From Enhygromyxa sp. (GTDB lineage: Bacteria; Myxococcota_A; Polyangia; Nannocystales; Nannocystaceae), in the NCBI GenBank assembly GCA_046484755.1, contig JAWOII010000250.1:1-28195 (forward strand): DNA of 28,195 nucleotides. The letters are read 5' to 3'. Positions 239 to 23,810 of the stretch are shown in pieces. The position numbers and the translations under genes are program-made. The notes under the pieces are model-generated. The model saw only the letters and a program-made list of their open reading frames with translations. It did no database searches and was not told where the DNA came from. Positions within the stretch are counted from its first letter, which is position 1, and each line of letters starts with the position of its first letter.

Positions 239-535
239 CTACCTGGGTTGGTCAACAAAGCCGATCAACGCGTGGAGCTCGACGATGTCGGCGTCGGTGC
301 ACTTGCGCGTGCGGATCACCGTAATCGGGTTGCCGCTCAGGGTCGCGCGCAGGATGAGCCGCGCGCTTTGAATCTCCATGATCCCAAACCCGGCGGGAGC
401 CCGGACCTCGCCGTAGCGGGCCGCGAGCCTGCGCCAGAGCTCGGCGACCTGCTGCTTCTCGAAGAAGTACTTGTAGGTCTCGGGGTGGATACAGGCGTAG
501 TGGCGCGCTCGCGTCGGGGCTGGCCAATCGCTCAT
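239..535 (-). CDS. small hypothetical protein (98 aa), third gene of the RsbR-like operon
   Basis: Internal ATG (533-535, complementary strand) within ORF 239..886. MSDWPAPTRARHYACIHPETYKYFFEKQQVAELWRRLAARYGEVRAPAGFGIMEIQSARLILRATLSGNPITVIRTRKCTDADIVELHALIGFVDQPR has a diverse, protein-like composition. Its ATG overlaps the TGA of the upstream gene (ATGA at 532-535). No family recognised; possibly a small alpha+beta fold. Confidence 0.45.
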   Translation of the reverse strand: MSDWPAPTRARHYACIHPETYKYFFEKQQVAELWRRLAARYGEVRAPAGFGIMEIQSARLILRATLSGNPITVIRTRKCTDADIVELHALIGFVDQPR

Positions 536-1767
536 GCCGTGCGCTCGACTTCGAAGCTGCAGGCCGGCGCGCCGACGCAGATGCAGGCCGACTCGTGCGT
601 GGCGCAGGTCCCGAGCCGGTCCTCGACGGCCCCGCTGCCGTAGACGAGCTCGAGCAGGCCCGCGGCGACGCCGGTTAGCATATAGCAAGTCGGGCTCGCG
701 GCCGGGCCCCGGCGCTCGCCATAGCCGATCGCCTCGTAGCCGTTGAGCGACTCGAAGCTGATCCGCTCGGGGTTCGGGTGGTGGGTGATGTGCCAGTTGC
801 CCCAGCCGAGGCCGTTGCTGATCGCGACGAGCGCGAGCATCTTGTCGCGCGGCTCCCGGATCATCGGCGCGACGAGGGCGTCCCACTCAGCCGAGTTCAT
901 GATCCCGCGAAAGGTGTTCATCGCACAGATCTCGCCGTCGGCGATCAGCATGCGCTTGGCTGCCCTTTCGCGCCGCTTGGCGGCCATCGCCTCGACGAAG
1001 CGGATGCACACGAGGTTGTAATAATCCGCGGGGGTGTTGGCCAGGTATACGCTAAACGCGGGGATCAGCCCCTCGGCGTTGCCGTGGATCGGCATCGCGA
1101 CGAGCGCGTCGATGAGCGCCTGCTCGTCGACATTGTTCGAGCGCAGGTACTCACCGCGCCGCTTGGGCGAGAACTCGAACTCGTGCTTTACGTCGCTCGC
1201 GGGCGACTCGGCGCGGGCGTCGTCGAGCTCGAACACGCACGCCGGGTCGCCCTTGGCCATGCACGCGCGCTCGCGTGCGTGCACGAGCCGGTCGTCGACG
1301 ACTCGGACGGCGGCTTGAATGTAGCCCTCGGCGAAGCTGCAGACCGGCCGCTCGGGTGTGCCGAAGCCCGCGAGCCAGCCCTCGACGTAGTGTGAGGACG
1401 TGGCCCTGACCCGGCCCTCGGCCAGCGTCGAGAAGTCGAGCACTCCGAAGCCCAGGTGGGCGTAGAGCCCGATCGCGACGGCGAGCTTGGTCGCCGCGTC
1501 GTCGCCCTCGCGCAGGGCCGCGGCGATTTGCTCGGCGAATACGGCCTCGGCTGAGCTGCGGATGATCGCCTTTCCGTCGATCATGTCCGTGCCTTCGATG
1601 GTCCGCTGAACTCGCGCGTTGTAATGATGGCAATGAATGATGACGTCTTTTTCGGCGATGACCCGGCGATGGTTGGCGGGGTCGTAGCGAAGCTCGAAGC
1701 GGGACGCGAGCGCTGCGGTGTCCATGTGGTCCTCCTCGGCGACACGGCGGTCGCGTGATTCGATCAT
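532..1767 (-). CDS. tandem V4R-domain (XylR-N-like, putative small-molecule-binding) protein, 411 aa
   Basis: Two halves each end in a Cys-containing V4R-like signature. The first is C-SFAEGYIQ...ERACMAKGDPACVFEL; the second is CYMLTGVAAGLLELVYGSG...TCATHESACICVGAPACSFEV. Start ATG at 1765-1767 overlaps the TGA (1764-1766) of the upstream RsbR-like gene. Stop at 532-534 overlaps the ATG of the downstream small gene. Confidence 0.5.
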   Translation of the reverse strand: MIESRDRRVAEEDHMDTAALASRFELRYDPANHRRVIAEKDVIIHCHHYNARVQRTIEGTDMIDGKAIIRSSAEAVFAEQIAAALREGDDAATKLAVAIGLYAHLGFGVLDFSTLAEGRVRATSSHYVEGWLAGFGTPERPVCSFAEGYIQAAVRVVDDRLVHARERACMAKGDPACVFELDDARAESPASDVKHEFEFSPKRRGEYLRSNNVDEQALIDALVAMPIHGNAEGLIPAFSVYLANTPADYYNLVCIRFVEAMAAKRRERAAKRMLIADGEICAMNTFRGIMNSAEWDALVAPMIREPRDKMLALVAISNGLGWGNWHITHHPNPERISFESLNGYEAIGYGERRGPAASPTCYMLTGVAAGLLELVYGSGAVEDRLGTCATHESACICVGAPACSFEVERTA

Positions 1768-2942
1768 TTGCGCGAAATCGAACGAATCGCAGTCTGCAAA
1801 TTCGCGTAGACTTCGAGATCGCCATAGTCGGCCCAATCCTGCGCGATGCTCTGCGCGATCGCAGGGCTCAAGCCGGTCAGCAGGGCGCGGACGCCAATCA
1901 GCCGCAGCGCCCGGGTCGCGCGGATCAGCGCGTCGACGCTACGGGTGTCGAGCTCGGGCACGCCGGTGAGGTCGAGTATGATCGTGCGCGTGCGCTCGCT
2001 AACCGCGGCCGCGAGCAGGTCCTCGACGATCTCGCTCAGGCGCTCGCCGTCGAGCTCGCCGATGAGCGGGACTACGGTGACCTCGGGGCTGATCGGGATG
2101 CGTGGGGCCGTCAGCGCCCGGATCGCCTCGCGCTGCGCGGCGATGATCTCGGCCTGGTGGCGCAACTGCTCCTGCTCGCGAGCGCTTCGTTCCTGCTCGG
2201 CTCGTCGGCGGTCGCTGCGGTCACGCAGCGAGAGGCTGTAGCCGGCCCGACCCGCGCCCGGGAGGTACAGCGGCCGAGTCTCGAGCTCGAGCCAGCGACC
2301 GTCGAGCTCGAGCTCGCTACGGTAGCCGGCCGGAGACCACAGTGCGTCGGTCCGCAGCAGCGCGTGGCTCTCCGACTCGGCGATCAGCTCGACGAAGCTG
2401 CGGCCGGCGAGGGCCTCCTCGACGATCAGCACGCCGTGGGCGGAGCGAAAGCCGATCAGCTCGACGAAGCGGGCGTTGTGCTCGACGATGCGCAGGTCGC
2501 CGTCGAGGAACACGATGCCCTCGGAGGCCTCGCGGATCACCGCCGCGGTCCGCCGCTGGCGCACGAGCAGGTCATGAACGAGGTTGTTGGCGCCGTCGAG
2601 CGGCTCGACGCTCGCGACCCAGCCGTCGGCGTCGCGGACCAGGACCAGCCGGGTCAAGCGCTCGCGTGCTCCGAGCTCGAGCAGCGCGAGGATGTCGACG
2701 TGCGCGCGCGAGTGGTTTGTCGCGCAGCGATCGAGGGCGAGCGTGGCCGGGCGATCGCGGGCGGCCACGAAGTCGGTCAGCTCGACGCCCTCGAGCTCGG
2801 CGAAGCTGCACTCGAACTCGCGCAGGAACCAAGCCGAGGCCGCGCGCACGGCCAGGCCCTCGTCTAGGCGCAGGAGCCCCAAGGGCGCCTCGATGTCCGG
2901 CTCATGCATGCGCGACGACTCGGGCATCCAAGCGAGCACCAT
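1764..2942 (-). CDS. RsbR-like stressosome-type sensor: N-terminal sensor region, PAS-like domain, coiled coil, C-terminal STAS domain
   Basis: The C-terminus TVVPLIGELDGERLSEIVEDLL...TIILDLTGVPELDTRSVDALIRATRALRLIGVRALLTGLSPAIAQSI closely resembles the RsbR/RsbS STAS domain. The track ORF begins with TTG at 2969. In-frame ATGs lie at 2942, 2927 and 2909 and none has a clear SD, so the start is uncertain. Confidence 0.65.
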   Translation of the reverse strand: MVLAWMPESSRMHEPDIEAPLGLLRLDEGLAVRAASAWFLREFECSFAELEGVELTDFVAARDRPATLALDRCATNHSRAHVDILALLELGARERLTRLVLVRDADGWVASVEPLDGANNLVHDLLVRQRRTAAVIREASEGIVFLDGDLRIVEHNARFVELIGFRSAHGVLIVEEALAGRSFVELIAESESHALLRTDALWSPAGYRSELELDGRWLELETRPLYLPGAGRAGYSLSLRDRSDRRRAEQERSAREQEQLRHQAEIIAAQREAIRALTAPRIPISPEVTVVPLIGELDGERLSEIVEDLLAAAVSERTRTIILDLTGVPELDTRSVDALIRATRALRLIGVRALLTGLSPAIAQSIAQDWADYGDLEVYANLQTAIRSISRK

Positions 2943-2969
2943 GAAGCACCCGGCCGGCGCAAAAATCAA

Positions 2970-4522: not shown

Positions 4523-4837
4523 ATGCCCAAGCGCTCTCCGCCTGTCTTCCCGCGTGTCATGCGCCAGCTCGACGAGCTCGGCGCCCGGCTGCGCGCGGCG
4601 AGACTGCGACGGCGGATGACCCAAGCGACGCTCGCTGCTCGAGTCGACGTCTCGTTGCCCACCATCCGCAAGCTCGAGAAAGGCGACCCGACCACGAGCC
4701 TGGCGACGCTGGTGCGGGCGCTGCAGGTGCTGGGCCTGGAAAAGGACCTTGACCTGCTCGCCGCCAACGACAAGCTCGGCCGCGCGCTGCAGGACATTCA
4801 CCAGGTCGGTCCGCCGCGCGGTAAGAGGTCGTCATGA
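4523..4837 (+). CDS. hipB: XRE-family HTH transcriptional regulator, HipB-like antitoxin
   Basis: LRAARLRRRMTQATLAARVDVSLPTIRKLEKG is a Cro/C1-type HTH. Its TGA (4835-4837) overlaps the ATG of the hipA-like gene (4834-4836). Confidence 0.7.
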   Translation: MPKRSPPVFPRVMRQLDELGARLRAARLRRRMTQATLAARVDVSLPTIRKLEKGDPTTSLATLVRALQVLGLEKDLDLLAANDKLGRALQDIHQVGPPRGKRSS

Positions 4838-6087
4838 GCGAGCGAGTCGATGTCGTGCTCGACGACGCGTCGCTCGGACCGACGACGAAGATCGGCACGC
4901 TCCACCGAGAGCGCGGCCGCTCGGCCGAGGTCATCAGCTTCGCTTATGAAGACGACTATCTCGCGCTACCGGGGGCCGTGGCGATCGATCCCGAGCTGCA
5001 GTTGCATCCCGGTCGTATGTACCCAACCCAGCAAGGTGGGCTGTTCGGGATCTTCCGTGACACCGCGCCGGACCGCTGGGGACGGGTGCTGATGGAGCGG
5101 CGAGAGGCCCTGGACGCGAAGCAGCAAAAGCGACGGCGGCGGCGGCTCTCGGAGTGGGATTTTCTGGTCGGCGTCAGCGATGTCGCGCGCCTTGGGGCCT
5201 TGCGACTGTGTGAGACCGAGCCGCCGCATCGATACCTCGACGACCGCGACCACACGGTCCCGCCCTTCGCTCGTCTGCGCGAACTCGAGGCTATCGCGCG
5301 CGAACTCAGCCGCGAGGGTGTCGAAGAGCGCCCGGAGTATGCCCAGTGGTTGGCGCAGCTCATCCAGCCGGGAACGAGCTTGGGCGGCGCACGACCCAAG
5401 GCGACCTTTTGTGGGGAGGACGGGCAGTTGTGGCTCGCCAAGTTCCCTGCCCACGACGATCGACGCGACGTGGGAGCTTGGGAGCACTTCGCCGGCCAAC
5501 TGGCGCTCACAGCCGGAATCCACATGCCGGAGTCCCGGCTGCTCGATCTTGGCAGCCGATACCGAACCCACGCCCTCAAGCGCTTCGATCGTGAGCCGGG
5601 CTCGCGGCGCCTCTACGCCTCGGCGATGACGCTCTTGGAGTTGAGCGACGGTGCAGAAGGTAGCTACCTCGATATCGCCGAGGCGATCCAGCTGCATGGC
5701 GATCCTGCTCTCATCGCTGCGGATCTCGAGCAGCTATACGGCCGCATCGTGTTCTCCATCCTGATTAGCAACCGCGACGATCACTTCCGCAACCACGGCT
5801 TCTTGCGGACCGCCGGCGGCTGGCGACTCTCGCCGGCCTTCGACATCAACCCCAACCCCGACAAGCTCGAGCACGCGCTGGCGATCGATGAAGCCGACCC
5901 GAGCCCATCGATCGCCAACCTGCACGCGACCCATCGCTATTATCGCCTCACCGACACCCAGGCCTCGAATATCGAGGTCCAGGTACGGGCGGCCGTTCGA
6001 GGGTGGCGGCAGATCGCCAGCAAGGTCGGTGTCTCCGCGGTCGAGCAGCGGCTGCTCGCGGACATCGTCGATCCCGACGCAGACTGA
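4834..6087 (+). CDS. hipA: HipA-family serine/threonine kinase toxin
   Basis: HipA N-terminal coupling region, P-loop-like GTSLGGARPKATF, and catalytic motif ISNRDDHFRNHGFL (HipA D-x-H-x-x-N type). RBS aagagg 5 nt upstream; translationally coupled to hipB. Confidence 0.8.
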   Translation: MSERVDVVLDDASLGPTTKIGTLHRERGRSAEVISFAYEDDYLALPGAVAIDPELQLHPGRMYPTQQGGLFGIFRDTAPDRWGRVLMERREALDAKQQKRRRRRLSEWDFLVGVSDVARLGALRLCETEPPHRYLDDRDHTVPPFARLRELEAIARELSREGVEERPEYAQWLAQLIQPGTSLGGARPKATFCGEDGQLWLAKFPAHDDRRDVGAWEHFAGQLALTAGIHMPESRLLDLGSRYRTHALKRFDREPGSRRLYASAMTLLELSDGAEGSYLDIAEAIQLHGDPALIAADLEQLYGRIVFSILISNRDDHFRNHGFLRTAGGWRLSPAFDINPNPDKLEHALAIDEADPSPSIANLHATHRYYRLTDTQASNIEVQVRAAVRGWRQIASKVGVSAVEQRLLADIVDPDAD

Positions 6088-6162
6088 GTCGCGCTCAGCT
6101 GCCGCTCTTGCGCCCTGCTGCGCGAGCCGCTTTGGCGTCGACGATGAAGACTGTTTAGAGCG

Positions 6163-6198
6163 TCCGGCGCGGAATCGACCAGAGGCCGCCCCGCGCCG
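6163..6198. terminator. possible bidirectional terminator hairpin between convergent hipA and the MVP-like gene
   Basis: ccggcgcgg (6163-6171) and ccgcgccgg (6190-6198) form a 9-bp GC stem around an 18-nt loop. The long loop makes this weak. Confidence 0.15.
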
Positions 6199-6216
6199 GT
6201 CTCGGTGCGCGACGGC

Positions 6217-8706
6217 TCAGTCGACCTTCACCGGCCGCCCGTTGGCCCCCTCGCCTCCCACTGCGATCTCCGGCCCGAGCACCTGCGCGAGCTTGGTGCC
6301 GCGCAGCAACCTCGCGAGCACCTCCGAGACGCTCTCGCCCCCGAGGATCGCCAGCGGGGCCATGCTCTCGGCCATCTTCTCGGCCAGGGCTTTATCACCG
6401 AACGCTTGCAACGCGGCGATCAGATCGGGCGAGACGGCGCCGGCCTTGTCGACGACGGCCTTGACCTCGGCCTCGAGCTCGCGCAGGCGCTGGGCGAGCT
6501 CGCGATCGCCGAGCTCGAGGTCGGTCTCGGCGGTCCGGCGGCGGCGAGCGAGCTTGGCGTCGTGGACGGCGTCGGTGGTGGCTTGCTCGGCTTGCTCGGC
6601 GTCGAGTCGACGCTTGCGGCTGTCGACCTCGGCGTCGATCTTGGCGACGTCGTAGTCGTGGACCGCGTCGATCTCGGCCCGCTGCAAGGCCAGCTGCTTT
6701 TGCCTGGTCGCGGCCTCGATCGCGGCGATCTCTTGCTTGATGGTCTCGCGCTCGCGGGTCTGATCGAGCCGGCGGCGCTCAGCCTCGAGGGTCAGGTTTT
6801 GCTGGACCACGGCGTGCTGGGTGTCGATCAGCAGCCGGGCGATCTCGGCGTCGCCGATCTCGACGTCGAGGACCTCGACGTCATAGACCCGCATGCCGTT
6901 CTCCTCGAAGTTTCGGCCGGGGCGCTTGCCGTCCTCGTTTTGGGCGCCGAGGACCACGTCGCGGACGACCGAGACCACCTGCGGGTGGAAGCTCTGGACC
7001 GTGCGCTGCTTGATCGCGCCGCGCAGCAGCGAGCGGAGGTGCTCGGTCAGAAATTTTACGTAGTTCTCGACGTTGAACCAGCGCTGCGGATCGCCCTCGA
7101 AGTTGACCCGGTAAGACAGCCGGATCCGGACCGAGACCAGGTCCGCGGTCTCGGCCTCGACGAGATCCGAGACCTTGTTGTAGAGCACCCGCAGGTAGGC
7201 GGTGCGCTCGAGCTGGGCGTCGGACTTGGGCGTGCCGGTCGAGAGCTCGGCCGGCTGCAGGACCTCGTCGTACTCGAGCATGTGGGTGGCCGGGCCGACC
7301 ACGACCTTGCGCTCGCCGGTCTTGCTGACCACCAGCACCGCGTAGCCGGTCCAGACCGCGATGCACACGGCCCCGTCGTAGCGGGTGTCGAGCACGATCG
7401 TCCGCGGCTGGGTGAAGCTCTGCCCGCGGTTGAAGTCGTCGCCCGCGTAAGTCGAGCTGGCCTCCTCCTCCTGCTCCTGCTTCTTCTTCTTCCTGGCCCG
7501 CTCCTGCTTGTGCGCGCGAAGCTCGAGCTCCTCGTTGGCGATGTAGTCGCTCTTGCCCTCCTGCAGGGCGGCCAGCCGGCGGTTGTGCTCGAGCGCGTCT
7601 TGGTTGCCGGGGAACCACAGCTTGACGTGGCGGGGATCGAGGATCCGCCGGACGATCACCTCGCGCCGGGGATCGGGCAGGAAGATCGAGGGGCCGCGCT
7701 CGAGCCGAATCTGCCCGGTGTGGCGGTCGAGCACGTAGCGGGCCTCGCCGGCCGGAATCGCGACCCCGTAGCTGATGGTCTGCTGCCCGTACTTGATGAT
7801 CGCGTGCTCGGGCCGGGGGAAGTAGATCATTTGATCCTTCCCGGTGATGAACAGCTCGTCGCCGACGTTGTAGCTGTTGCCCTTGCCGTCCTCGTAGGGG
7901 GCGATGACCTTGATGTAGATGCCGCTGTTTTCGTTGAGCTCGATCGCCCGGAATTTGTTGGCGCCCTCGCGCTCGACGAAGGTCTCGGTCGGCTGCGGGA
8001 ACACGACCGCGGGGCCCTGCAAATAGGTCTTGTTGCCGTTTTCGTCGAGCAGGATGCAGTACTCGAGGCGCTCGAGGGTCACGGCCTCGCGCACGAACTC
8101 GCCGTCGTCGTTGGGGACGACCTCGATGCCGGTCGAGGGGATGTAGAAGCTGACGTCGGTGCCCTTGATGACCAGCTGCTTGCCCATGGTCAGGTCGGGC
8201 GGCTCGACCTCGAGCGCGCCCTCTTCGGCCGAGCCCTGCCGCTTGATCACCGCCCGCTCCCAGTTGGCCTTGGCGGCTTCTTCGTCGTAGACGCGGACGA
8301 TCAGGTACTGATTGGAGCGCAGGTTGTGGCCCTGGATGACCCGGACCATCTGCCCGGGCCACAGCGCGAAGGCGGCCGGCCCGGGGAGGTTGACCTTGCG
8401 GCCGATCTCGAGCTCGATGAGGTTGTTGATCGCCCCGGTCTTGGGGTGCGAGCTGTCCTTGGCGGGGTTCTTGAGGACCAGGTACCAGCCGACCGGCGCG
8501 ACCGCGAAGCTGCGGGTTGCGGCCTCGAGCGAGCACTTCTCGAAGCGCTTGTTCTCGGCGTTGAAGACGACCGGCTGATCGGTGTTGGCGAGGCTGGTCT
8601 TGTACGGACCGATGTAGGCGTTGATGTTGCCCTTGGTCTCGTCGGCGATGAAGGCGTACTCGTTGGGGGCGAGGATCAGGTCTCGTTCACGGGCGCGGTC
8701 GGACAT
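6217..8706 (-). CDS. major vault protein (MVP)-like protein: vault repeats, SPFH-like shoulder, long coiled-coil cap-helix; 829 aa
   Basis: N-terminus [39 protein letters not shown] matches the MVP repeat-1 pattern [63 protein letters not shown] parallels MVP [32 protein letters not shown]. Shoulder segment [35 protein letters not shown] parallels MVP [35 protein letters not shown]. A long Ala/Glu/Arg-rich coiled coil (about 200 aa) at the C-terminus resembles the MVP cap-helix. Contains a K/E-rich low-complexity insert encoded by the ctcctcctc/cttcttctt tract at 7462-7497. RBS ggag 9 nt upstream of the ATG (8704-8706). Confidence 0.7.
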   Translation of the reverse strand: [829 protein letters not shown]

Positions 8707-8772
8707 GCGGGAGGCTCCTGCGAGAAGACAGGATACGGGTTTGCCGAGCCGGCGGATCGGCGAAGCGGTGAT

Positions 8773-10074
8773 TCAATGAAACAGCAGGTGAATGCCCGCA
8801 TCCGAGCTGTAGACGACCTTGGAGGAGTGCGGGTGGCTGGCTTCGAGGGCGACGAAGTGGAGATCGGGGGCCGCGACCCCGAGCTTGCGGGTCCACAGCT
8901 CCTGGAAGTTGATGAAGCGCTCGTAGCGAGAGCGACCCTCGAGCTGGGACCTGCAGTTCTCGGGGAAGGTGTTCTCGTGATCGGTGGCGGCCTGGATGTG
9001 CCAGACCTCGCGCGAGGCGTACATGAGGATCAGCGCCTGGCGAGCGGCGCGGTTCCAGATCGCGCTGCCGGGGTTGCGCAGGGCCTTGCGGGCGAGGGCC
9101 CGATCATGGGGGCGCAGGTAGTGGTCGATCGCGTAGTTGGCCGCGCGGACCGGACGATCGCTCTTGGCCTTGCTCAGATTGCCGAGGCCGTAGCCCCAGT
9201 CATCCCAGCCCTTGCAGCCTTGCGGGTTGATCCACCGCCAGCTTTGGATGTCGCCGCGCCCGGGTCCGGGCGGGACCGAGCCGCGCCCGGGCGGGGTCTT
9301 GCGCTGAGGAAGCGGAAAGGCATAGCTGCCGCCGTTGGCCGGCATGTACCGGACCCGGATGCCGGCAGCGGCGAGCTGCTCGTGCACGCCGACGCCCATC
9401 CACACGTAGCGGTGCACGAACTGGCCGCCGGCGGAGTGGCCAGTGATGACGATGTCCTCGAGGTTGGGGAACTTGACGACCGCGGCCCGGAGGAACTCGT
9501 CGAGGACGTCGAATGACGAGACCGACTCGGCCTTGACGATGCCTGACATCGCCTCGCGGTACTCGGCGACGGTGCCGAGCGGATAGGAGGCGCGAGTCCA
9601 GCTCCACACCCGCGGATCGTCGTCGGTGTAGGGCTGCCACTCGTCGGTCCGCTGGAAGGTCGGGGCGATGATCGCGTAGCGCTCGGGGTCGACGCTGGGG
9701 TCGAGCTTCTGGGCCCGGCGCAGGGCGTAGAGGACGTTGCGCAGCTGATAGAGGCCAGGCGGCTCGTCGAGCCGGGCGAGGAGGTCGGCGTCGGGGCCGT
9801 AGACGCCGTGGACGACGAAGATCATCCGCGTGACCTTGGGATCGGGGCGGCCGTCGAGCTCGCTGCCGGGGTCGCAGTGGTAAGGCATGCGCCCCTTGAA
9901 GTGCTCGGCGTGGGCCCAGCGACGAAACTTGAGGTAGGTCTGCACGCACTCGTCGGGCTGACAGCGCTGCAGCTCCTCGACGGGCTTGTAGCGAGGCGGT
10001 CCGGCGTTGCGCCCGGCGCAGCCGAGCAGCGTCCAGAGCAGGCACCAAAGCAGCCACTGCGAGCGGCCGAGCAT
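8773..10074 (-). CDS. lipoprotein, alpha/beta-hydrolase fold (GHSAGG nucleophile elbow)
   Basis: Start chosen at [19 protein letters not shown], a signal peptide with lipobox LLGC. The longer track ORF adds an Arg-rich extension that overlaps fdh[15 protein letters not shown] is a G-x-S-x-G motif. Lies 66 bp upstream of the MVP-like gene on the same strand, so it may be co-transcribed. Confidence 0.55.
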
Positions 10075-10098
10075 CGCGGCGAGTGTACACTCGCCTCG

Positions 10099-10955
<857 letters not shown>

Positions 10956-10959
<4 letters not shown>

Positions 10960-11518: not shown

Positions 11519-12346
11519 ATGTCCGATCTCGCTGTCAAGGGGTTGGTTCTCGGCACGGAGGTGGTGAAGTACGTCCGCGACCACCCCCAGACGGTCAACG
11601 CGACGTGGGACATGATCTCGGCGCTGCTCAAGAAGAGAAAGCGGGTGGTCGTCACCGGGATGAAGTGGGCCGGCAAGACGGTCCTCTGCGATTTCCTCAC
11701 GGGGAAGGGATACGAGGAGGGCTACGTGCCACCCGACTCGTCAGTCCGACAGGAGGACGCCCGGATGCCGCGTCCGAAAGGACGCGAGGGCTTCGTGCTC
11801 TCGACGATTCCTGGCGACGACTCGCTCCCCCGGCGAAGCTCCCTGGACGAGCTGCTTGGTGGCGGCGAGACCATCACTGGAGTGATGCACGTGGTGTCGA
11901 ATGGCTTCGTCGCGCCGCGCTCCGGCGTCGCACGCGAGCTCATGGAGCGAGACCACGCCACCGTGGACGAACTCCGAACGGCGATGCTCGATGCCGAGGT
12001 TGAAAACCTGGGAGAGACGCTGCGCGCACTCGAAGCTTACTGGCTGCGGACGAGGCGCCCGCTGTGGCTGCTGATCGTGCTCACCAAGACCGACCTCTGG
12101 TCGCTGACTCAGCGCGAGGTCTTCGAGCATTACACGCGCAAATCCAGGTTTGCGCGTGACCTTTCGGCGCTCCGAGCGCGCATCGGCTCGCTGAATCTCG
12201 ATCTACGGTGGACAGTGGCTGCTACAGTGCAGGAAGACTTCGTCTGGACCAAACGACAGGCGAGGGTGGAGTCCGCGCTCTCCAAGGAACAACGAGATGC
12301 CTACGTACGCCTACTCAGGGCTCAGCTCTACGAGCTCGTCGGTTAA
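11519..12346 (+). CDS. P-loop NTPase, GTPase-like (Walker A GMKWAGKT; [NT]KxD-like LTKTD)
   Basis: VVVTGMKWAGKTVLCDF is a Walker A/G1 motif. WLLIVLTKTDLW is a hydrophobic strand followed by a TKxD G4-like motif. The gene has lower GC (about 62%) than its flanks (about 72%). Confidence 0.55.
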   Translation: MSDLAVKGLVLGTEVVKYVRDHPQTVNATWDMISALLKKRKRVVVTGMKWAGKTVLCDFLTGKGYEEGYVPPDSSVRQEDARMPRPKGREGFVLSTIPGDDSLPRRSSLDELLGGGETITGVMHVVSNGFVAPRSGVARELMERDHATVDELRTAMLDAEVENLGETLRALEAYWLRTRRPLWLLIVLTKTDLWSLTQREVFEHYTRKSRFARDLSALRARIGSLNLDLRWTVAATVQEDFVWTKRQARVESALSKEQRDAYVRLLRAQLYELVG

Positions 12347-12812
12347 GCCGCAAGACGAGCGCCTCGACGCTCGTGAAGGCCCCGACGACCTTCTCGACGA
12401 TGGTCGCTCAGCGGCTTTGCAGCTTGCCGATTTCGAGAAAGTCGTCGATCGGCTACTTGGAGAACACGAAAAGTTCGAAGCACAGCGCGTTCGAGCATAC
12501 ACGCAGTTGGCATATGCCGTTGCCGTCATCTTCTTCTTGACTATCGCGTTTGTATTCTCGACTCGCACATCCACCGCAAACACCGCGCACCTCACCATTG
12601 CCAGTTTCGTGCTGGCCCTTGGGTCTATCATTCTAATGGTCTGGACTGTGTTCCGAAGCTTCCGGAACCAACAGCGCACCCACGAAGAACTGGCCGAACT
12701 CGTGCGAGAAATCGCACCAGCCTTCATGCCCAAATTATCTCCCATCCGCCGCGCCGAAATCAAGATCCGACTCTCCAACATCGGAATCTACGACCCCCTG
12801 AAATACCGCTGA
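12297..12812 (+). CDS. small membrane protein: cytoplasmic N-terminal region plus 2 predicted TM helices
   Basis: Hydrophobic segments AYAVAVIFFLTIAFVF and LTIASFVLALGSIILMVWTVF. GC is only about 53-55%. The ATG at 12297 overlaps the end of the GTPase gene by 50 nt in another frame, so the true start may be an in-frame non-ATG start downstream. Confidence 0.45.
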   Translation: MPTYAYSGLSSTSSSVKPQDERLDAREGPDDLLDDGRSAALQLADFEKVVDRLLGEHEKFEAQRVRAYTQLAYAVAVIFFLTIAFVFSTRTSTANTAHLTIASFVLALGSIILMVWTVFRSFRNQQRTHEELAELVREIAPAFMPKLSPIRRAEIKIRLSNIGIYDPLKYR

Positions 12813-12814
12813 CG

Positions 12815-13576
12815 TCAATCCACGACCACGAAGCTCGTGAACCGCTCGGTCACCCGCAGCTGCCCCTCGGGAGCATCCTTCACGCCGCCTTCGTGGCCGA
12901 AGTTCACGACCTGCCGGCGCTCGATCGGCAGCCCGCGCTCGTCGAGCCACAAGGTCGCGCGCCCGACCGGGCGCTTGCTCACGGTGATCTGAAACTCGAG
13001 CGGCCGGGCCTCGCCGGTGCCGAACACCTCGGGCGGACCGAGCTGCGGCTCGATGACCTGGATCCACTCGGCCACGCCGCCGTCGGCGTGATCGGGCGGG
13101 CGGCCGGCGACCAGCATCGCGAGGTTGTGGAGCAAGCCCTGGCGGGTGAGGCCGACGACCACGGCCTCGATCAGCGCGGGCGGGCGCGGGCCGGTCCAGC
13201 GCGACTCGCCGGCGCCGAGGACCTCGAGGGTCTGGGCGTCGCCGCGCAGCTCGAGCTGCTGGGGCTCACCGTTGAACTCACCGCTGACGGTCCACGCCAG
13301 CGCGGCGTCGCGCTCCCAGACCAGCTTGCCCTCGAGCTGCGACACCACCGCGCCCTCGGACTCGATCACGAACGCGATCTCGACCCGCGCGGCGGCTTGC
13401 AGGCGCCGCTCGAGATCGGTCAGGGTCCGCACCGCCCAGGCGTCGGCTTGCTTGGGCTCGGCTTCGGCTTCGACGGGCGTGGCCGGCTCGCCCGAGAGGG
13501 TCTCGCCCGAGGTCGCGCACGCGAGCGCGAGCGTGGTCGCAGCGAGCAGGGCCAGCGTCACTGATCGGCGGAGCAT
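12815..13576 (-). CDS. hypothetical lipoprotein (253 aa)
   Basis: Internal ATG (13574-13576) of the 1003-aa track ORF. N-terminus MLRRSVTLALLAATTLALAC is a signal peptide with lipobox LALAC. The remainder of that ORF is antisense to gene 13667..15727. Its stop at 12815-12817 lies 2 nt from the convergent stop at 12812. Confidence 0.55.
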   Translation of the reverse strand: MLRRSVTLALLAATTLALACATSGETLSGEPATPVEAEAEPKQADAWAVRTLTDLERRLQAAARVEIAFVIESEGAVVSQLEGKLVWERDAALAWTVSGEFNGEPQQLELRGDAQTLEVLGAGESRWTGPRPPALIEAVVVGLTRQGLLHNLAMLVAGRPPDHADGGVAEWIQVIEPQLGPPEVFGTGEARPLEFQITVSKRPVGRATLWLDERGLPIERRQVVNFGHEGGVKDAPEGQLRVTERFTSFVVVD

Positions 13577-13666
13577 CGCCCGAATGATCCCCGGGCGGTC
13601 ACCGTTGTACAACCCGCCCGTCCGGCAATCGCTTCGTGTATCCTCGGCCGAACCCTGGAGCTCACG

Positions 13667-15727
13667 ATGAAGCGCTTGACCCTGTTGATGACCCCTGCTT
13701 TGGCCTTGTCTCTCGCCGCGACGACCGGCTGCAACGACGACGCGCCCGCTGACGAGAACACCAGCGAGACCGGTGACGGCGACGGTGACGGTGACGGCGA
13801 CGGCGACGGTGACGGCGACGGCGACGGTGACGGTGACGGTGACGGTGACGGCGACGGCGAGGAAGACCCGCCGGCCGAGGTCTCGTGGCCGACCCTCGAT
13901 TGCGACCCGCTGGTGCCGGACTACTGCCTGTTCCCCTACCCCAGCAACGTGTTCACGGCCGACGATCCCGGCTCGCCCACCGGCCGCCGCCTGGCCCTGA
14001 GCAGCGAGCGGCTGCCGAGCAAGAACAACAACGAGATGGACGCGACGGTCTTCAACGAGGCCGACGGCTTCTCGGCAGGACTGGCGGCGATGACCTACCT
14101 GCCGGGCGCGACCACCTCCGGGCTGCCGACCTGGCAGGACCTCGACGCCTCGCTCGCCGCCGACTCGCCGACCGTGATGATCAACGCCGAGACCGGCGAG
14201 CGCGTGCCTCACTTCTCGGAGATCGACGTCTCGCTGGCCGGGGCCAACAAGAACGCGCTGATGGTCCGCCCGGTCGTTCGGCTCGACGACAACACCCGCT
14301 ACATCGTCGCGATCCGCAACGTCGTCGACCAAAACGGCGAGGTGATCCCGGCCAGCCCCGGGTTCGCGGCGCTGCGCGACCTGACCCCGAGCGACGACCA
14401 GAGCATCGAGGAGCGGCGCCCGCTCTACACCGACATCTTCGCGCGCCTCGCCGACGCCGGGGTCGAGCGCGGCTCGCTGCAGATCGCCTGGGACTTCACG
14501 ACCGCGAGCCTCGACAACAACACCGGGGATCTGCTCCACATGCGCGACGACGCGCTGTCCATGTACACGCCCGAGGCGGGACCGACCTTCACGATCACCA
14601 CGGTCGACGAGGACTGGAACACCGACCACATCGCCTACCGGATCGAGGGCATGATCGAGGTCCCGCTCTACCTCGATGATCCCGGCCCCGGCGGGCACAT
14701 CGTCTATGGTGACGACGGGCTGCCCGAGTACCAGGGCACCGCCGAGTTCCCGTTTTACATGCTGATCCCCAACAGCGCCCTGGATACTCCCGCGCAGCTG
14801 TTGCAGTACGGCCACGGCCTGCTCGGCAGCGCGTCGGAGATGTACACCGGCCACATGCGCTCGTTCATCGACGAGTACAACTACATCCTGTTTGCGGTCG
14901 ACTGGATCGGGATGTCGCAGTACGACGCCCTCAACATCGCGTCGATGCTCACCACCGGCGAGATGCACCGCTTCGAGGACGTCAGCGATCGCCTCCAGCA
15001 GGGCCTGGTCAATTTCGTGGTCGCGACCCGGATGATGAAGACCAGCATGGCCGACCATCCGGACTACGGCTCGTTCATCGATCCCAGCGCCGCCCACTAC
15101 CTCGGCATCAGCCAAGGCGGGATCTTCGGCGGGACCTTCATGGCGATCTCGCAGGACGTCGAGCGCGGCTGCCTTGGCGTGTACGGCCAGCCCTACAACA
15201 TCCTGCTCAACCGCAGCGTCGACTTCGATCAGTACTTCGCGCTGCTCCAGCAGGGCTTTAGCGACTCGCGCGACCTGCAGATGATCCTCGCGCTGATCCA
15301 GGGCCTGTGGGACCACGCCGAGCCCAACGGCTACACCCACAAGATCAGCCAGGACATGTTCCCTGACACGCCCGAGCACGCGGTGCTGATGCGCGCGGCG
15401 CTTGGCGATCACCAGGTCACCACCCTCGGCGCTCACATCGGCGCCCGGGCGGTCGGGGCCAAGCACCTCGACACCGGCGTCCGCGAGGTCTGGGGGCTCG
15501 AGCAAGTCAGCGATCAAAACGAAGGCAGCACCTACGTCGAGTGGGACTTCGGCCTGCCCGAGGATCCGCTCGAGAACGTCCCGCAGGAGGCCTGCGCAGA
15601 TCCCCACGGCAAGCTCCGCCACCTCGAGGAGGCGCGGATGCAGCTCGACACCTTCTTCCAGACCGGGGTCGTGCAAAACTACTGCACCAACGGGACCTGC
15701 TCGTTCCCCGACATGAGCGGGTGCTGA
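13667..15727 (+). CDS. secreted lipoprotein, alpha/beta hydrolase (GISQGG nucleophile motif) with an N-terminal (Gly-Asp)n linker
   Basis: MKRLTLLMTPALALSLAATTGC is a signal peptide with lipobox. G-x-S-x-G appears in HYLGISQGGIFGG. RBS ggag 7 nt upstream of the ATG. The (GD)n tract is encoded by a hexanucleotide repeat. Confidence 0.65.
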   Translation: MKRLTLLMTPALALSLAATTGCNDDAPADENTSETGDGDGDGDGDGDGDGDGDGDGDGDGDGDGEEDPPAEVSWPTLDCDPLVPDYCLFPYPSNVFTADDPGSPTGRRLALSSERLPSKNNNEMDATVFNEADGFSAGLAAMTYLPGATTSGLPTWQDLDASLAADSPTVMINAETGERVPHFSEIDVSLAGANKNALMVRPVVRLDDNTRYIVAIRNVVDQNGEVIPASPGFAALRDLTPSDDQSIEERRPLYTDIFARLADAGVERGSLQIAWDFTTASLDNNTGDLLHMRDDALSMYTPEAGPTFTITTVDEDWNTDHIAYRIEGMIEVPLYLDDPGPGGHIVYGDDGLPEYQGTAEFPFYMLIPNSALDTPAQLLQYGHGLLGSASEMYTGHMRSFIDEYNYILFAVDWIGMSQYDALNIASMLTTGEMHRFEDVSDRLQQGLVNFVVATRMMKTSMADHPDYGSFIDPSAAHYLGISQGGIFGGTFMAISQDVERGCLGVYGQPYNILLNRSVDFDQYFALLQQGFSDSRDLQMILALIQGLWDHAEPNGYTHKISQDMFPDTPEHAVLMRAALGDHQVTTLGAHIGARAVGAKHLDTGVREVWGLEQVSDQNEGSTYVEWDFGLPEDPLENVPQEACADPHGKLRHLEEARMQLDTFFQTGVVQNYCTNGTCSFPDMSGC
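13772..13859 (+). repeat. in-frame hexanucleotide microsatellite (ggYgac)n, about 14.5 units, encoding (Gly-Asp)n
   Basis: ggtgacggcgacggtgacggtgacggcgac... read directly from the sequence. It generates the spurious VTVTVT ORF (13773..14000) in another frame and VAVAVT on the minus strand. Confidence 0.85.
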
Positions 15728-15902
15728 GCTGCTGAGCTCTCGCTCGAGAGGCTGCGGCCGCGCTGCTTGGCGCGGCCGCAGTCGCGAGCGGAGCTCGCCA
15801 ATCGCAAGGACGGGGATCGTCCCCACCCGTCGAGCTTGGATTGCCGCGTTGCCTCACCGATCGAGGACGAGTTCGCTCGCCCTGGGCCGGATCCGGCGGT
15901 CT

Positions 15903-18035
<2,133 letters not shown>

Positions 18036-18045
18036 GCGTCGCCGG

Positions 18046-18067
18046 GCGCCGAGCCCTTGCTCGGCGC
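18046..18067 (+). terminator. perfect 9-bp GC hairpin (gcgccgagc-cctt-gctcggcgc) 11 nt after the metalloprotease stop, followed by tandem gctcggc heptamers
   Basis: Stem 18046-18054 and 18059-18067 with loop cctt. No U-tract, which is common in high-GC genomes. The direct repeat gctcggc x3-4 continues to about 18084. Confidence 0.35.
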
Positions 18068-18147
18068 TCGGCGCTCGGCGCTCGCGCGTCGCGGCCTGGA
18101 ACGGAGAATGCACGTGTTCATGGTGACGAAGCCCGAAAGGACCAATC

Positions 18148-18669
18148 ATGAGCAGCGAACAAAGCGCCGAAGTCCAGTCCGCCGAAAAACTCCGTAAGCT
18201 CGTGCGCGAGTTCGACGACGCGATGCTCGTCAGCCTCGACGGCGGCGGCCAGCTGCACGGCCGTCCCATGCGGATCGTCGGTCACCAGCAAGACGGCGCC
18301 GACGATCTATGGTTTTTCACCGGAATCAACGCCGCCAAGCTCGCCGAGATGCGCCAAAACCCGCAGGTCGCGGTGACCATGGCAGACGGCAAGCGCTTCG
18401 TGGCGATCAGCGGCGAGGCCCGCATAGTCGTCGATCCGGCCAAGATCCAGAGCCTGTGGAACGAGAGCTGGAAGCTGTGGTTCCCCGACGGGCCCACGGG
18501 CGGCGGGATCGCGCTGATCCAGGTGCTGCCGCAGCACGCGGAGTACTGGGATCAGTCCTTCCCGGCGGGGATCCGCTTCGCGCTCGAGGCCGCCAAGGCC
18601 TGGGTCGCCAACGAGGCGATCGAGGAGCCCGACCGGCCCGAGCAGCACGCGAAAATTCAACTCTCCTGA
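18148..18669 (+). CDS. pyridoxamine 5'-phosphate oxidase-like FMN-binding protein (general stress protein 26 family)
   Basis: LVREFDDAMLVSLDGGGQLHGRPMRIV...QNPQVAVTMADGKRFVAISGEARIV...LWFPDGPTGGGIALIQV is the PNPOx-like split-barrel pattern. RBS gaaagg upstream. Confidence 0.6.
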   Translation: MSSEQSAEVQSAEKLRKLVREFDDAMLVSLDGGGQLHGRPMRIVGHQQDGADDLWFFTGINAAKLAEMRQNPQVAVTMADGKRFVAISGEARIVVDPAKIQSLWNESWKLWFPDGPTGGGIALIQVLPQHAEYWDQSFPAGIRFALEAAKAWVANEAIEEPDRPEQHAKIQLS

Positions 18670-18759
18670 GCCCGGGGTCACTCATTCCCGAGCGTGCTTG
18701 CGATCGGGGGGGCACGGATCCGAAGCTCGCACGTCTACCAGCGCGGCGAGGCCAGGCTC

Positions 18760-20103
18760 ATGCATCGCACCGCGCGTGTTTCCAACAAGACCCCTCCTCG
18801 TGGCGTGCCGCTGCTCGGCCACCTACCCCGGCTGCTCGCCGATCCCTGCGCGCTCGCGGTCGAGCTGATGCGCTTGGGTGACGAGGTCGTCCCCCTGCGG
18901 CTGGGCCCGACCACGGTCTATTTCGTCCACCACCCCGACCATCTCCAGCACATCATGCTGGACAATCACCAAAACTACAGCAAGGGCCCGCTGTTCGCCC
19001 GCGCCGACATCCTGGTCGGCAACGGGCTGGTGGTCAGCCACGGCGAGGCGTGGCGACGGCAGCGGCGGCTGATGGCGCCTCCCTTCGCGCGCAAGCGGCT
19101 GCGCGAGCTGGTGCCGGTCATCGCCAGGGTCGTCGAGGCGCGCCTGGCCCCCTGGCGCCAAGGCGGGGTGTTCGAGATGTGGCGCGAGATGACCGGCATC
19201 ACCATGAGCGCGCTGCTCGAGAGCATCTTTGCGACCAGCATGGACGAGGGCATGGTTCGTCGCTTCGTCAACGCCTTCGACACCATCGTCGATCACGTCG
19301 GGATCCGGGCGCTGGCCTTCTTCCTGCCCGAGCGCTTCCCCCTGCCCGGGCGGGCGGCGGCGCTGGCTGCCCGCGAGGAGCTGCACCGGATCATCGAGGA
19401 CATCGTCGCCGAGCGGCGCCGCTCGGGCAGCGAGGGCAACGACCTGCTCGGCCTGCTGCTCGCCGCCCGCGACGAGGGCGGCGAGGGCATGAGCGACGAG
19501 CAGCTCCGCGACGAGGTCAAGACCGCCGTGTTCGCGGGCTACGACTCCACGGCCACCGGCCTCGCCTTCACCCTCTACCTGCTCGCAGCCCACCCCGAGT
19601 CGGCCCGGCGGGCCCGCGAGCAGATCATGGAGGTCATGCCCGAGGGCCTCCCCGACGCCGAGCAAGTCGAGCAGCTCGATTACCTGCGCCGGGTGTTTTG
19701 CGACGCGCTGCGCCTGTACCCGCCGCTGGCCTTTCACCCGCGCATGGCCCTGGCCGACGACCAGATCGGCGGTCAGCGGATCCCCGCGGGGGCGACCTTG
19801 CTCTACAGCAATTACGCGCCCGGGCGAAACCCGGCATTTTGGCAGTATCCCGACTCTTTTTATCCGGATCACTTCCTGCCCGAGGCGGTCGCCCAGCGCC
19901 ACCGCTTCGCCTATCAGCCCTTCGCCGTCGGTCCACGCAGCTGCATCGGCATGGGCATGGCCGTGCTCGAGGCGCAGATCGTCCTGGCGATGATCCTGCG
20001 GGACTACGAGCTGGTCCGACCGGTGAACACGCCGGTGATGCAAGGGCGCATGGGCACCTCGCGGGCCAAGGGCGGGATCTGGATCGAGCTGCGGCCGCGC
20101 TGA
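18760..20103 (+). CDS. cytochrome P450 monooxygenase
   Basis: Heme-binding loop FAVGPRSCIGMGMA (F-x-x-G-x-R-x-C-x-G), I-helix AGYDSTATG, and E-x-x-R in DALRLYPP. Start taken at ATG 18760 (MHRTARV...) rather than the non-ATG start at 18694. Confidence 0.85.
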   Translation: MHRTARVSNKTPPRGVPLLGHLPRLLADPCALAVELMRLGDEVVPLRLGPTTVYFVHHPDHLQHIMLDNHQNYSKGPLFARADILVGNGLVVSHGEAWRRQRRLMAPPFARKRLRELVPVIARVVEARLAPWRQGGVFEMWREMTGITMSALLESIFATSMDEGMVRRFVNAFDTIVDHVGIRALAFFLPERFPLPGRAAALAAREELHRIIEDIVAERRRSGSEGNDLLGLLLAARDEGGEGMSDEQLRDEVKTAVFAGYDSTATGLAFTLYLLAAHPESARRAREQIMEVMPEGLPDAEQVEQLDYLRRVFCDALRLYPPLAFHPRMALADDQIGGQRIPAGATLLYSNYAPGRNPAFWQYPDSFYPDHFLPEAVAQRHRFAYQPFAVGPRSCIGMGMAVLEAQIVLAMILRDYELVRPVNTPVMQGRMGTSRAKGGIWIELRPR

Positions 20104-20129
20104 CGCCCGGTCCACAGCTCATCAGCGCC

Positions 20130-21458: not shown

Positions 21459-21597
21459 TGTTGCAGTGCTCCGCAATTCGCTCGTGGTGCGGGTTCGGCC
21501 CGCGTGCGCCGGCAGTCTAACAGCCCGCGGCCGCCTGCGTGCGTGAGATTGGTTTGTACGGCGCTGCCGCGCTCGCGCCGAGCTGGTACCCTCGGCC

Positions 21598-22245: not shown

Positions 22246-22299
22246 CCAGGCGCATTCGCGGTAATTGCTGACGCAGGCCCGCGACAGCGATGGTCGAGC

Positions 22300-23046: not shown

Positions 23047-23157
23047 GGGGCTTCTCCTCGCTCGACAGACTACTTGAAACCCGACCCTCGAGCTCGGCGC
23101 CGATCCGCGGCGCTTCGGGGGATTCGCTGGGAGTGATCGATCAGGCAGACTAAGGCG

Positions 23158-23763: not shown

Positions 23764-23810
23764 GCGAGCTGAGGTGGACGATCGTCGCGGGCGTGGGCGA
23801 TGATTGACCG

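Follow-up and report, generated by a model that had tools for sequence, protein, structure and literature searches.

A full-length bacterial homologue of the major vault protein in Enhygromyxa, likely a stand-alone vault-like shell protein

The function and the origin of vaults are long-standing questions. Does a myxobacterial genome encode a real major vault protein (MVP) counterpart, and if so, what would this protein build, and with which partners? A sequence-only reading of a contig from Enhygromyxa sp. (GenBank assembly GCA_046484755.1, contig JAWOII010000250.1) had proposed an 829-aa bacterial MVP homologue encoded together with a lipoprotein hydrolase. We analyzed the whole stretch of 28,195 nucleotides, referred to here as the window. 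The MVP-like gene and the parts of its protein, with approximate domain bounds, are as follows.

6217..8706, minus strand: MVP-like gene, 829 aa, stop codon counted in
8715..8719, minus strand: AGGAG ribosome-binding site of this gene, 8 nt before the ATG, read from the sequence
7639..8682, minus strand: six predicted N-terminal beta-repeat domains, residues 9-356
7375..7638, minus strand: linker, residues 357-444, predicted helical then disordered (alignments, pLDDT, hhalign)
7462..7533, minus strand: K/E-rich low-complexity stretch within the variable linker, residues ~392-415 (sequence)
7183..7374, minus strand: seventh beta-repeat, equivalent to eukaryotic R9, residues 445-508 (Pfam Vault_3, PDB alignments, residue mapping)
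6850..7182, minus strand: SPFH-like MVP shoulder, residues 509-619 (PF11978)
6442..6849, minus strand: single long helix rich in Ala, Arg, and Glu, counterpart of the cap helix, residues 620-755 (model DSSP, composition, alignment to the human cap helix)
6217..6441, minus strand: short C-terminal helices and variable tail, residues 756-829 (invariant alignment columns, hhalign)

The encoded protein is a genuine bacterial homologue of MVP, full-length and collinear, with a similarity far beyond chance. The Pfam family MVP_shoulder (PF11978) matches residues 509-619 with E = 2.8e-27 (95.5 bits against a cut-off of 25), spanning positions 2-118 of the 118 in the profile, and was found in all 21 relatives searched. 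MVP chains in the PDB are matched with E-values of about 5e-16 (phmmer) and about 6e-23 (family profile). When the bacterial profile was compared with that of vertebrate MVP using hhalign, the local alignment gave E = 3.7e-37, and the global alignment gave a probability of 100 and E = 3.5e-54 over 722 columns, at 22.6% identity to vertebrate MVP. It pairs residues 1-829 with human residues 1-887, as expected from the whole-length resemblance noted earlier by eye, except that human segments 104-158 and 200-236 have no counterpart in the window protein. Eukaryotic MVPs match all four vault-repeat families of Pfam (PF01505, PF17794, PF17795, and PF17796); here, Vault_3 (PF17795) is the sole one above threshold, and marginally so (residues 462-499, E = 6.5e-7, 29.8 versus 28.8 bits). 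The profile search suggested as a check of the homology gave a clear match for the shoulder, a marginal one for Vault_3, and, for PF01505, sub-threshold matches in 6 of the 21 relatives. The other repeats rest on profile-profile comparison and structure prediction, the latter made from a multiple alignment of the protein's own family with AlphaFold, whose training included MVP structures. DSSP assignment of the predicted model yields seven beta-domains, followed by the shoulder and the cap helix, which is the stacked arrangement of an MVP-type fold that the sequence-only reading had anticipated.

Because the two human segments have no counterpart, the model suggests about seven repeats rather than nine. 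The six N-terminal ones (approximately residues 9-51, 66-119, 120-203, 204-248, 249-306, and 307-356) would correspond, in order, to eukaryotic R1, R2, a single repeat of the R3-R5 type, R6, R7, and R8. In the family alignments, the linker that follows is variable both in composition and in length; hhalign pairs it with the eukaryotic R8 loop, and its pLDDT falls below 50 at residues 413-428. The K/E-rich stretch, previously described as an insert that interrupts the repeats, does lie here, but it is part of this family-variable linker instead of a discrete insertion, and its homologues do not conserve it. The seventh repeat carries a near-invariant LSTGTPK loop, aligned with the eukaryotic "keyhole loop", whose K494 is present in 85 of 85 sequences. 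In the shoulder, the ETAD segment that had been spotted by eye occupies residues 519-522 and aligns to human ETAD 530-533. The long Ala/Glu/Arg coiled coil was likewise recovered, residues 620-755 being predicted as one unbroken helix of 136 aa with further helices up to residue 809. The C-terminal helices include an invariant MAPLAILGG motif, in a region of low pLDDT that aligns with the eukaryotic cap-ring.

Compared with eukaryotic MVP (rat, human, and rabbit; PDB 4V60, 9BW5, and 9Z4W), the window protein shares R1, R2, R6-R9, the shoulder with ETAD, the cap helix, the cap-ring region, and the fold. The differences concern sites of interaction. The R3-R5 block on which the MINT domain of PARP4 docks shrinks to a single repeat, and no residue corresponds to D214. 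Among the 13 residues listed for the human NAD+/ADP-ribose pocket in the MVP shoulder (Lodwick 2025; PMC12280208), only K506 is kept (window K494); the 12 others are replaced, two of them from basic to acidic, with changes including R507 to T/S, P565 to E/D, K573 to D/E, and W545 to V. At the waist interface, human F6/I7/I36 correspond to R8/D9/L39 and human R9/D39 to I11/T42. These residues are chemically different from the human ones, and a closed, two-half cage of the 78-mer kind is therefore not guaranteed; those at the waist-contact positions are strongly conserved within the bacterial family. Neither vault RNA nor any other Rfam family was matched on the contig.

The neighborhood of the gene was of particular interest, given the proposed partnership with the hydrolase.

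8773..10074, minus strand: lipoprotein, probable alpha/beta-hydrolase-fold esterase with a GHSAGG motif, 433 aa; a neighbor outside the MVP system
4523-4837, plus strand: hipB, HTH_31 and HTH_3 in a 104-aa ORF
4834-6087, plus strand: hipA, HipA_C (E = 2.3e-43) and Couple_hipA (E = 1.4e-7)

The hydrolase gene, whose start agrees with NCBI protein R6X02_32515 (100% identity and coverage), lies on the same strand as the MVP-like gene across a 66-bp gap. The lipid anchor and the GHSAGG motif described earlier are borne out: its family has an invariant lipobox Cys19 together with five more invariant cysteines (six in all) and an invariant G212-H213-S214-x-G216. The protein itself has no Pfam or NCBIfam match above threshold, and an alpha/beta-hydrolase-fold esterase is the probable assignment given the motif, the sub-threshold Abhydrolase_1 and Abhydrolase_6 matches of its relatives, the PF12697 domain carried by distant homologues, and a profile match (E = 0.003) to the LpqC-type PHB-depolymerase-like esterase 3d0k, with which it shares GHSAGGQxVHR.

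The reading of the two genes as one unit, in which the hydrolase is an associated or cargo enzyme of a vault-like compartment, is in our view essentially refuted. It draws on the short gap without a convincing terminator in between, on the adjacency being repeated in L001 and L081, the closest relatives (MVP 88-89% identical), and on two more close relatives that carry homologues of both on equally long contigs. Nevertheless, tblastn found the hydrolase beside the MVP-like gene in just 1 of 80 species loci, and the pair is broken within Enhygromyxa: two opposite-strand genes separate them in Enhygromyxa L082; E. salina SWB007 carries the MVP-like gene and the hydrolase on separate contigs, the latter together with fdhD next to rsmB-groESL; and in E. 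salina DSM 15201, as in Nannocystis, the MVP-like gene has unrelated flanks. The conservation of the pair in related genomes, which had been named as the decisive check, is thus absent. Members of the hydrolase family occur only in Nannocystaceae (of 74 matches, only the ~50 strong ones, at E <= 1e-71, count as members), as opposed to the at least nine phyla of the MVP-like family. Moreover, given the lipobox and signal peptide of the hydrolase and the lack of a signal peptide in the MVP-like protein, both judged by sequence inspection, the former should be an exported lipoprotein and the latter not, placing them in different compartments. The hydrolase is a chance neighbor, syntenic with fdhD and not with the MVP-like gene.

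Clustering of neighboring genes across the 80 loci returned only kinase paralogues, in no more than 15 loci and in mixed orientation, with no conserved operon partner, membrane-protein or protease gene, or accessory gene of PARP4/TEP1 type. The MVP-like gene, with its own ribosome-binding site, is a stand-alone gene without a conserved operon partner. The hipBA module (ORFs overlapping by 4 bp) lies convergently downstream, as had been stated, and is an unrelated neighbor.

What, then, would such a protein build? We consider it a cytoplasmic, stand-alone, full-length bacterial MVP that probably self-assembles into a vault-like shell, by analogy with eukaryotic MVP and the SPFH cages (HflK/C, flotillin, prohibitin, stomatin, and erlin). 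None of the modules that form the vault wall and cap is missing, and they come in the same order; after MVP, the best structural matches of the model are SPFH cage proteins, all known to form closed ring or cage oligomers by means of the same SPFH-plus-helix module. The cytoplasmic location is suggested by the hydrophilic N terminus without a signal peptide. Neighboring protomers would pack laterally along their repeats and shoulders, with the long helices bundled together as the cap; the outcome would be a large, thin-walled ring or cage that resembles a vault with a shorter barrel. The lack of an operon partner, the reduced PARP4 block, and the unconserved NAD+ pocket lead us to argue that any bacterial particle would be independent of the eukaryotic accessory machinery; such a shell would function without PARP4, TEP1, vault RNA, or the eukaryotic NAD+ pocket. 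The further step, that bacterial MVP-like proteins form a genuine cytoplasmic vault-like nanocompartment, a minimal and accessory-free "proto-vault" of about seven repeats, is one we propose tentatively, leaning slightly against it. Like encapsulins and bacterial microcompartments, this would be a self-assembling shell in the bacterial cytoplasm, but the MVP fold is unrelated to theirs, and their cargo genes are conserved operon neighbors, of which MVP-like loci have none.

Two other architectures have to be weighed against the self-assembling shell. In the manner of flotillin, HflK/C, or stomatin, the protein could form an SPFH-type half-cage instead of a free closed particle: a single dome that caps the inner membrane on its cytoplasmic side, where it would organize or sequester a membrane patch. 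In favor of this, the shoulder is recognizable as Band_7 in 12 of the 21 relatives, the structural matches place SPFH membrane cages right after MVP, the waist residues are compatible with half-particles, and membrane binding by eukaryotic vaults, via the shoulder/cap region, has recently been observed (PMC13100048). We nonetheless find this unlikely: sequence inspection revealed no transmembrane segment, amphipathic N terminus, or lipidation motif; no conserved membrane-protein or protease partner accompanies the gene; and the canonical SPFH cage proteins (HflK/C, QmcA, flotillin, prohibitin, stomatin, and erlin) are membrane-anchored and lack MVP repeats, in contrast to the ~500 residues of beta-repeats that precede the shoulder here. 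A role without any cage was speculated upon by Sokolskyi (2019; 10.1101/872010): the protein would be a monomer or small oligomer, for instance a nucleotide-binding factor, a sequestering factor, or a scaffold. The same preprint placed predicted GMP/CMP pockets within the 500-700 stretch of the orthologue from E. salina; the near-invariance of the keyhole-loop counterpart and its lysine would fit. This seems to us quite improbable, considering the replacement of nearly the whole human pocket, the position of the eukaryotic pocket between two protomers (PMC12280208), which presupposes assembly, and an elongated, single-layer form of ~830 aa with a solvent-exposed helix of 136 residues that would be hard to rationalize without oligomers.

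The pattern of conservation is informative on the parts of the protein. Identity between phyla is 58-66%, and majority-residue frequencies are 0.57-0.75 in the beta-domains and shoulder versus 0.32-0.41 in the cap helix, where length is kept but sequence is not. These sequence comparisons indicate that the beta-domains and the shoulder are under strong purifying selection, and the pattern of the cap helix is as expected for a structural coiled-coil wall.

The family is already known, and an orthologue from the same genus is in print. Bacterial MVP-like proteins were described in silico by Daly et al. (2013; PMC3762200) and Sokolskyi (2019; bioRxiv 10.1101/872010), including those of Enhygromyxa salina (A0A0C2D5V5 / DB30_03657), Plesiocystis pacifica (the paralogues A6FXM1 and A6FXE2), Saprospira grandis (H6L4P8), Microscilla marina (A1ZGE7), and Herpetosiphon (A9AUD4), and JGI annotates family members as "major vault protein"; the novelty implied by the sequence-only reading is accordingly overstated. 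The window protein, 80% identical to the E. salina orthologue and 76% to that of Plesiocystis, shares with the described proteins the length, the Pfam content, the Band_7-like shoulder, and the "chemotrophic bacteria" clade, and differs in nothing substantive; it is one more orthologue, encoded by a MAG of Enhygromyxa, whose variable linker takes a K/E-rich form specific to the lineage. We found no experimental characterization of any bacterial MVP-like protein in the literature, oligomerization included, in keeping with the view of the family as functionally uncharacterized. Its supposed rarity holds when genomes are counted (at least 230 among 185,579 species genomes, a lower bound limited by the search pattern) but not in absolute terms, with >6,607 clusters at 90% and 1,371 at 50% identity, in phyla that include Myxococcota, Bacteroidota, Chloroflexota, Riflebacteria, Desulfobacterota, Sericytochromatia, and Planctomycetota, among others.

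This patchy distribution could suggest that the gene was recently acquired by horizontal transfer from a eukaryote and does not form a bacterial lineage of its own; Daly et al. (2013; PMC3762200) thought transfer from eukaryotes possible. We consider such an origin very unlikely. The low identity to vertebrate MVP, the smaller number of repeats, and the more SPFH-like shoulder all speak against it, as do the 656 divergent 50%-identity clusters (E <= 1e-30) across many bacterial phyla and the native-like GC content (0.65-0.70). In the published tree, moreover, the chemotrophic-bacteria clade stands apart from the clade of cyanobacteria plus eukaryotes (Sokolskyi 2019; 10.1101/872010).

If the proposal of a bacterial shell is true, the vault is not a eukaryote-only organelle, and MVP shells are a new class of prokaryotic compartment. 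The Enhygromyxa window itself offers no new handle on the vault question; the modest additions of the present analysis are that the hydrolase partnership is spurious, that no operon partner is conserved, that the family is wider than "rare" would imply, and that the protein appears to have about two repeats fewer than eukaryotic MVP, at the PARP4 docking site, with an unconserved NAD+ pocket. The lead was published in 2013 and 2019 for the same genus and its relatives, and known culturable carriers are E. salina, Plesiocystis, Nannocystis, Saprospira, and Herpetosiphon; on the same premise, culturable myxobacteria, Cytophagales, and Chloroflexota would provide a simple system for learning what purpose vault shells serve.

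The 829-aa protein is virtually certain to be a genuine, end-to-end homologue of MVP, the major vault protein. Two Pfam families are recognized, the MVP shoulder (PF11978) at E=2.8e-27 and, for a single vault repeat, PF17795 at 29.8 bits (cut-off 28.8), and among PDB sequences only MVP chains were matched (E=5e-16 by direct search, E=6e-23 by profile search), with alignments that are firm over residues ~450-800 and weak over 209-363. For a profile-profile comparison, 85 sequences of the bacterial family and 15 vertebrate MVPs were each aligned. The match had a probability of 99.9 in local mode (E=3.7e-37, 686 columns) and of 100 in global mode (E=3.5e-54, 722 columns, 22.6% identity), the global alignment running from residue 1 to 829 of the bacterial protein and from 1 to 887 of human MVP. 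The ETAD motif, the pattern P..Y....D.......GP of the first eukaryotic repeat (R1), the F.LWPG closing R2 and, at the C terminus, the cap-ring region are all aligned with their eukaryotic counterparts. The sequence-only reading had aligned the protein by eye to MVP along its whole length; this observation was largely correct, and the homology call is borne out by both the Pfam matches and the global profile alignment. The window spans a whole contig (28,195 bp) from the metagenome-assembled genome (MAG) of an Enhygromyxa sp. (Nannocystaceae, Myxococcota), with the following identifiable genes:

532-2969 (minus strand) and 18694-24983: V4R-domain, PAS-STAS, cytochrome P450 (E=2.5e-75), FHA-domain and sulfotransferase genes
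4523-4837, convergent with the MVP-like gene: hipB
4834-6087, convergent with the MVP-like gene: hipA (HipA_C, E=2.3e-43)
6217-8706, minus strand: MVP-like gene, 829 aa (ORF call)
8773-10074, minus strand: putative hydrolase gene, 433 aa, 66 bases upstream of the MVP-like gene
about 10099-10959, divergent from the hydrolase gene: fdhD (Pfam FdhD-NarQ, E=5.7e-72)
27263-28171, minus strand, at the contig end: DDE_3 / HTH_32 transposase (E=1.7e-24)

An AGGAG ribosome-binding site lies 8 nt from the ATG of the MVP-like gene. The hydrolase is identical (100%) to the NCBI protein R6X02_32515. The MVP-like, hydrolase, fdhD and hipBA genes are all of uniformly high GC (0.65-0.73), and a scan of 6000-10400 for promoters and terminators gave no signal above shuffled expectation.

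We parsed the protein into domains using the secondary structure of an AlphaFold model together with the profile alignment, from which the boundaries are inferred. The model was built on an 85-sequence alignment reaching 40% identity; an earlier one, from a shallow alignment of 21 sequences (>=63% identity), had pLDDT <50 over most of the N-terminal half and was discarded.

Residues 9-51, 66-119, 120-203, 204-248, 249-306, 307-356 and 445-508: seven beta-repeat domains
Residues 357-444: linker, helical then disordered
Residues 509-619: shoulder
Residues 620-755: single continuous helix
C terminus: short helices bearing an invariant MAPLAILGG motif

Profile comparison of repeat against repeat gave 91% for D1-D6, 66% for D3-D5 and at most 34% for the remaining pairs, in partial support of repeat homology. 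The protein has about seven repeats as against nine in eukaryotes, because human residues 104-158 and 200-236 are without counterpart and a single domain (120-203) occupies the position of R3-R5. In human vaults, the R3-R5 block is the docking site of the PARP4 MINT domain (PMC12280208). Human D214 has no bacterial equivalent, and of the 13 residues forming the human NAD+/ADP-ribose pocket only K506 is conserved (K494 in the window protein, present in 85/85 sequences); two basic residues of the pocket have become acidic (K573 to D/E, with P565 to E/D alongside), and W545 is replaced by V. At the human waist-contact positions, bacterial residues are chemically different, yet strongly conserved within the bacterial family. 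The K/E-rich stretch at residues 392-415, previously described as an insert interrupting the repeats, is real, but it does not represent an insertion event. It is a lineage-specific flavor of a variable linker, whose length and composition change from homologue to homologue; its eukaryotic counterpart in the alignment is the R8 loop.

The bacterial MVP family, this genus included, is already described and widespread. Homologues from Plesiocystis, Corallococcus, Microscilla, Saprospira, Flexibacter and Herpetosiphon were modeled as MVP-like (Daly et al. 2013; PMC3762200), and the Enhygromyxa salina protein was analyzed specifically in a preprint that assigned it a Band-7-like shoulder and a TolA-like helix, placed it in a clade apart from cyanobacteria and eukaryotes, and noted a correlation with gliding bacteria (Sokolskyi 2019; bioRxiv 10.1101/872010). 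Our literature search for experimental work on bacterial MVP found none, only in-silico papers. The E. salina protein, 80% identical to that of the window, is named "Major vault protein shoulder domain" in UniRef, and many family members carry the JGI label "major vault protein". More than 6,607 proteins were matched in a word-indexed search, and when 1.84 billion representatives at 50% identity were searched exhaustively, 1,371 clusters reached E<=1e-3, of which 656 passed E<=1e-30; most are full-length (820-900 aa). With one genome per species (GTDB r232), relatives occur in at least 230 of the 185,579 species, this count being a pattern-limited minimum. Among the 80 best are about 46 Myxococcota, seven Cytophagales/Microscillaceae, six Chloroflexota, five Riflebacteria, four Desulfobacterota, two Sericytochromatia and one each of Planctomycetota, Moduliflexus and Schekmanbacteria; identity to the window protein outside its own family is 58-66% in all cases. 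Recent acquisition of the gene from eukaryotes appears very improbable, given the 22.6% identity, the differing repeat number and the hundreds of divergent bacterial clusters. We also observed a full-length Foldseek alignment (E=1.4e-12, 915 columns) between the model and an 802-aa "prohibitin domain-containing protein" of Harvfovirus sp. (BFVD A0A3G5A4K1), which suggests that this giant virus may encode an MVP-like protein.

The close spacing of the hydrolase and MVP-like genes on the same strand had been read as a two-gene unit, with the enzyme as possible cargo. The hydrolase has a signal peptide ending at an invariant lipobox cysteine (C19), as well as five further cysteines and a G-H-S-x-G elbow, all invariant. 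Family-level matches to the alpha/beta-hydrolase fold were all sub-threshold, though consistent, the best being the LpqC-type PHB-depolymerase-like esterase 3d0k (E=0.003; GHSAGGQxVHR common to both), and close homologues occur only in Nannocystaceae. We searched 80 MVP loci from 80 species by tblastn, with 8 kb of flank per side, and found the hydrolase at only one, that of the nearest Enhygromyxa MAG. Adjacency is broken even within Enhygromyxa. The order fdhD<>hydrolase>MVP is seen in the related locus L081 (MVP 88% identical), where the MVP gene and three small ORFs stand between hydrolase and rsmB; in a second related locus, L082 (87%), a pair of genes on the opposite strand lies between hydrolase and MVP. 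In E. salina SWB007, fdhD<>hydrolase adjoins rsmB-groEL-groES (L083) and the MVP gene is on another contig (L003). Entirely different neighbors flank the MVP gene of both Nannocystis punicea and E. salina DSM 15201. These layouts indicate that fdhD is the stable companion of the hydrolase, and that the MVP gene came to lie beside it in one sub-lineage only. Moreover, an exported lipoprotein would be topologically unsuited as cargo of a protein without signal peptide. The two-gene cargo unit is refuted by the rarity of the adjacency in related genomes, the test that the sequence-only reading itself had set for it, and we give it almost no credence.

Clustering of flanking ORFs over the 80 loci revealed no widely conserved MVP neighbor. 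The largest clusters, with 15 loci for TPR-Ser/Thr kinases and 12 for hybrid histidine kinases, are typical myxobacterial paralogues in mixed orientations; they were rejected as partners, as were the remaining clusters, which are genus-level synteny blocks. A functional link to hipBA, which lies downstream of the MVP gene in the window, unlike in L081, was set aside, since HipA is missing from all 80 species loci. L082 has a HipA homologue (13767-14439) about 5 kb downstream of its MVP gene, with three genes between, and the proximity in these two contigs is probably local synteny rather than linkage. Gene order suggests that the MVP locus may be a point of rearrangement. E. salina DSM 15201 has, 84 bp upstream of its MVP orthologue and in the same orientation, a gene (L084, 2243-5917) for a protein of 1,224 aa without Pfam match; flanking-ORF clustering did not show it as a conserved neighbor elsewhere. 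Neither the MVP-like protein nor the hydrolase matched NCBIfam, PADLOC or PHROGs, and there is hence no support for a defense-system or phage origin.

The MVP-like gene is a stand-alone gene. Its product is a cytoplasmic-type protein containing every vault wall and cap module, in order; the beta-domains and shoulder are under strong purifying selection, and the long helix is conserved in length, not in sequence. By analogy with MVP and SPFH cage proteins, protomers would pack laterally and their long helices would bundle, giving a large ring or cage. We suggest that the product may be a vault-like shell with a barrel shorter than the eukaryotic one, which would need neither PARP4, TEP1 and vault RNA nor the NAD+ pocket of eukaryotes. 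Some large cyclic assembly is the reading we moderately favor, a closed two-half particle being less likely. A half-cage capping a membrane is an unlikely arrangement, and a nucleotide-binding or scaffold role without assembly is quite doubtful. The question of vault-like particle building in bacteria, and of its purpose, is interesting, although not newly opened by the window.

The contig contains no Rfam family at gathering thresholds and no tRNA. The V4R, PAS-STAS, P450, FHA and sulfotransferase genes are without evident link to the MVP gene, and the terminal transposase may account for the assembly break. Very long ORFs overlap in antisense at two places, 12815-15826 (minus) with 13667-15727 (plus) and 15849-18035 (plus) with 16497-18269 (minus), with essentially no Pfam matches. 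The only lower-GC stretch (0.598 at 12001-13000, versus 0.65-0.73 in the rest) holds two plus-strand ORFs with overlapping ends (11519-12812), whose products, without match in Pfam, NCBIfam or PADLOC, show a Walker-A-like GMKWAGKT (275 aa) and a long hydrophobic stretch (171 aa). Near fdhD, L081 and L082 carry genes for products of 275-279 and 88 aa.
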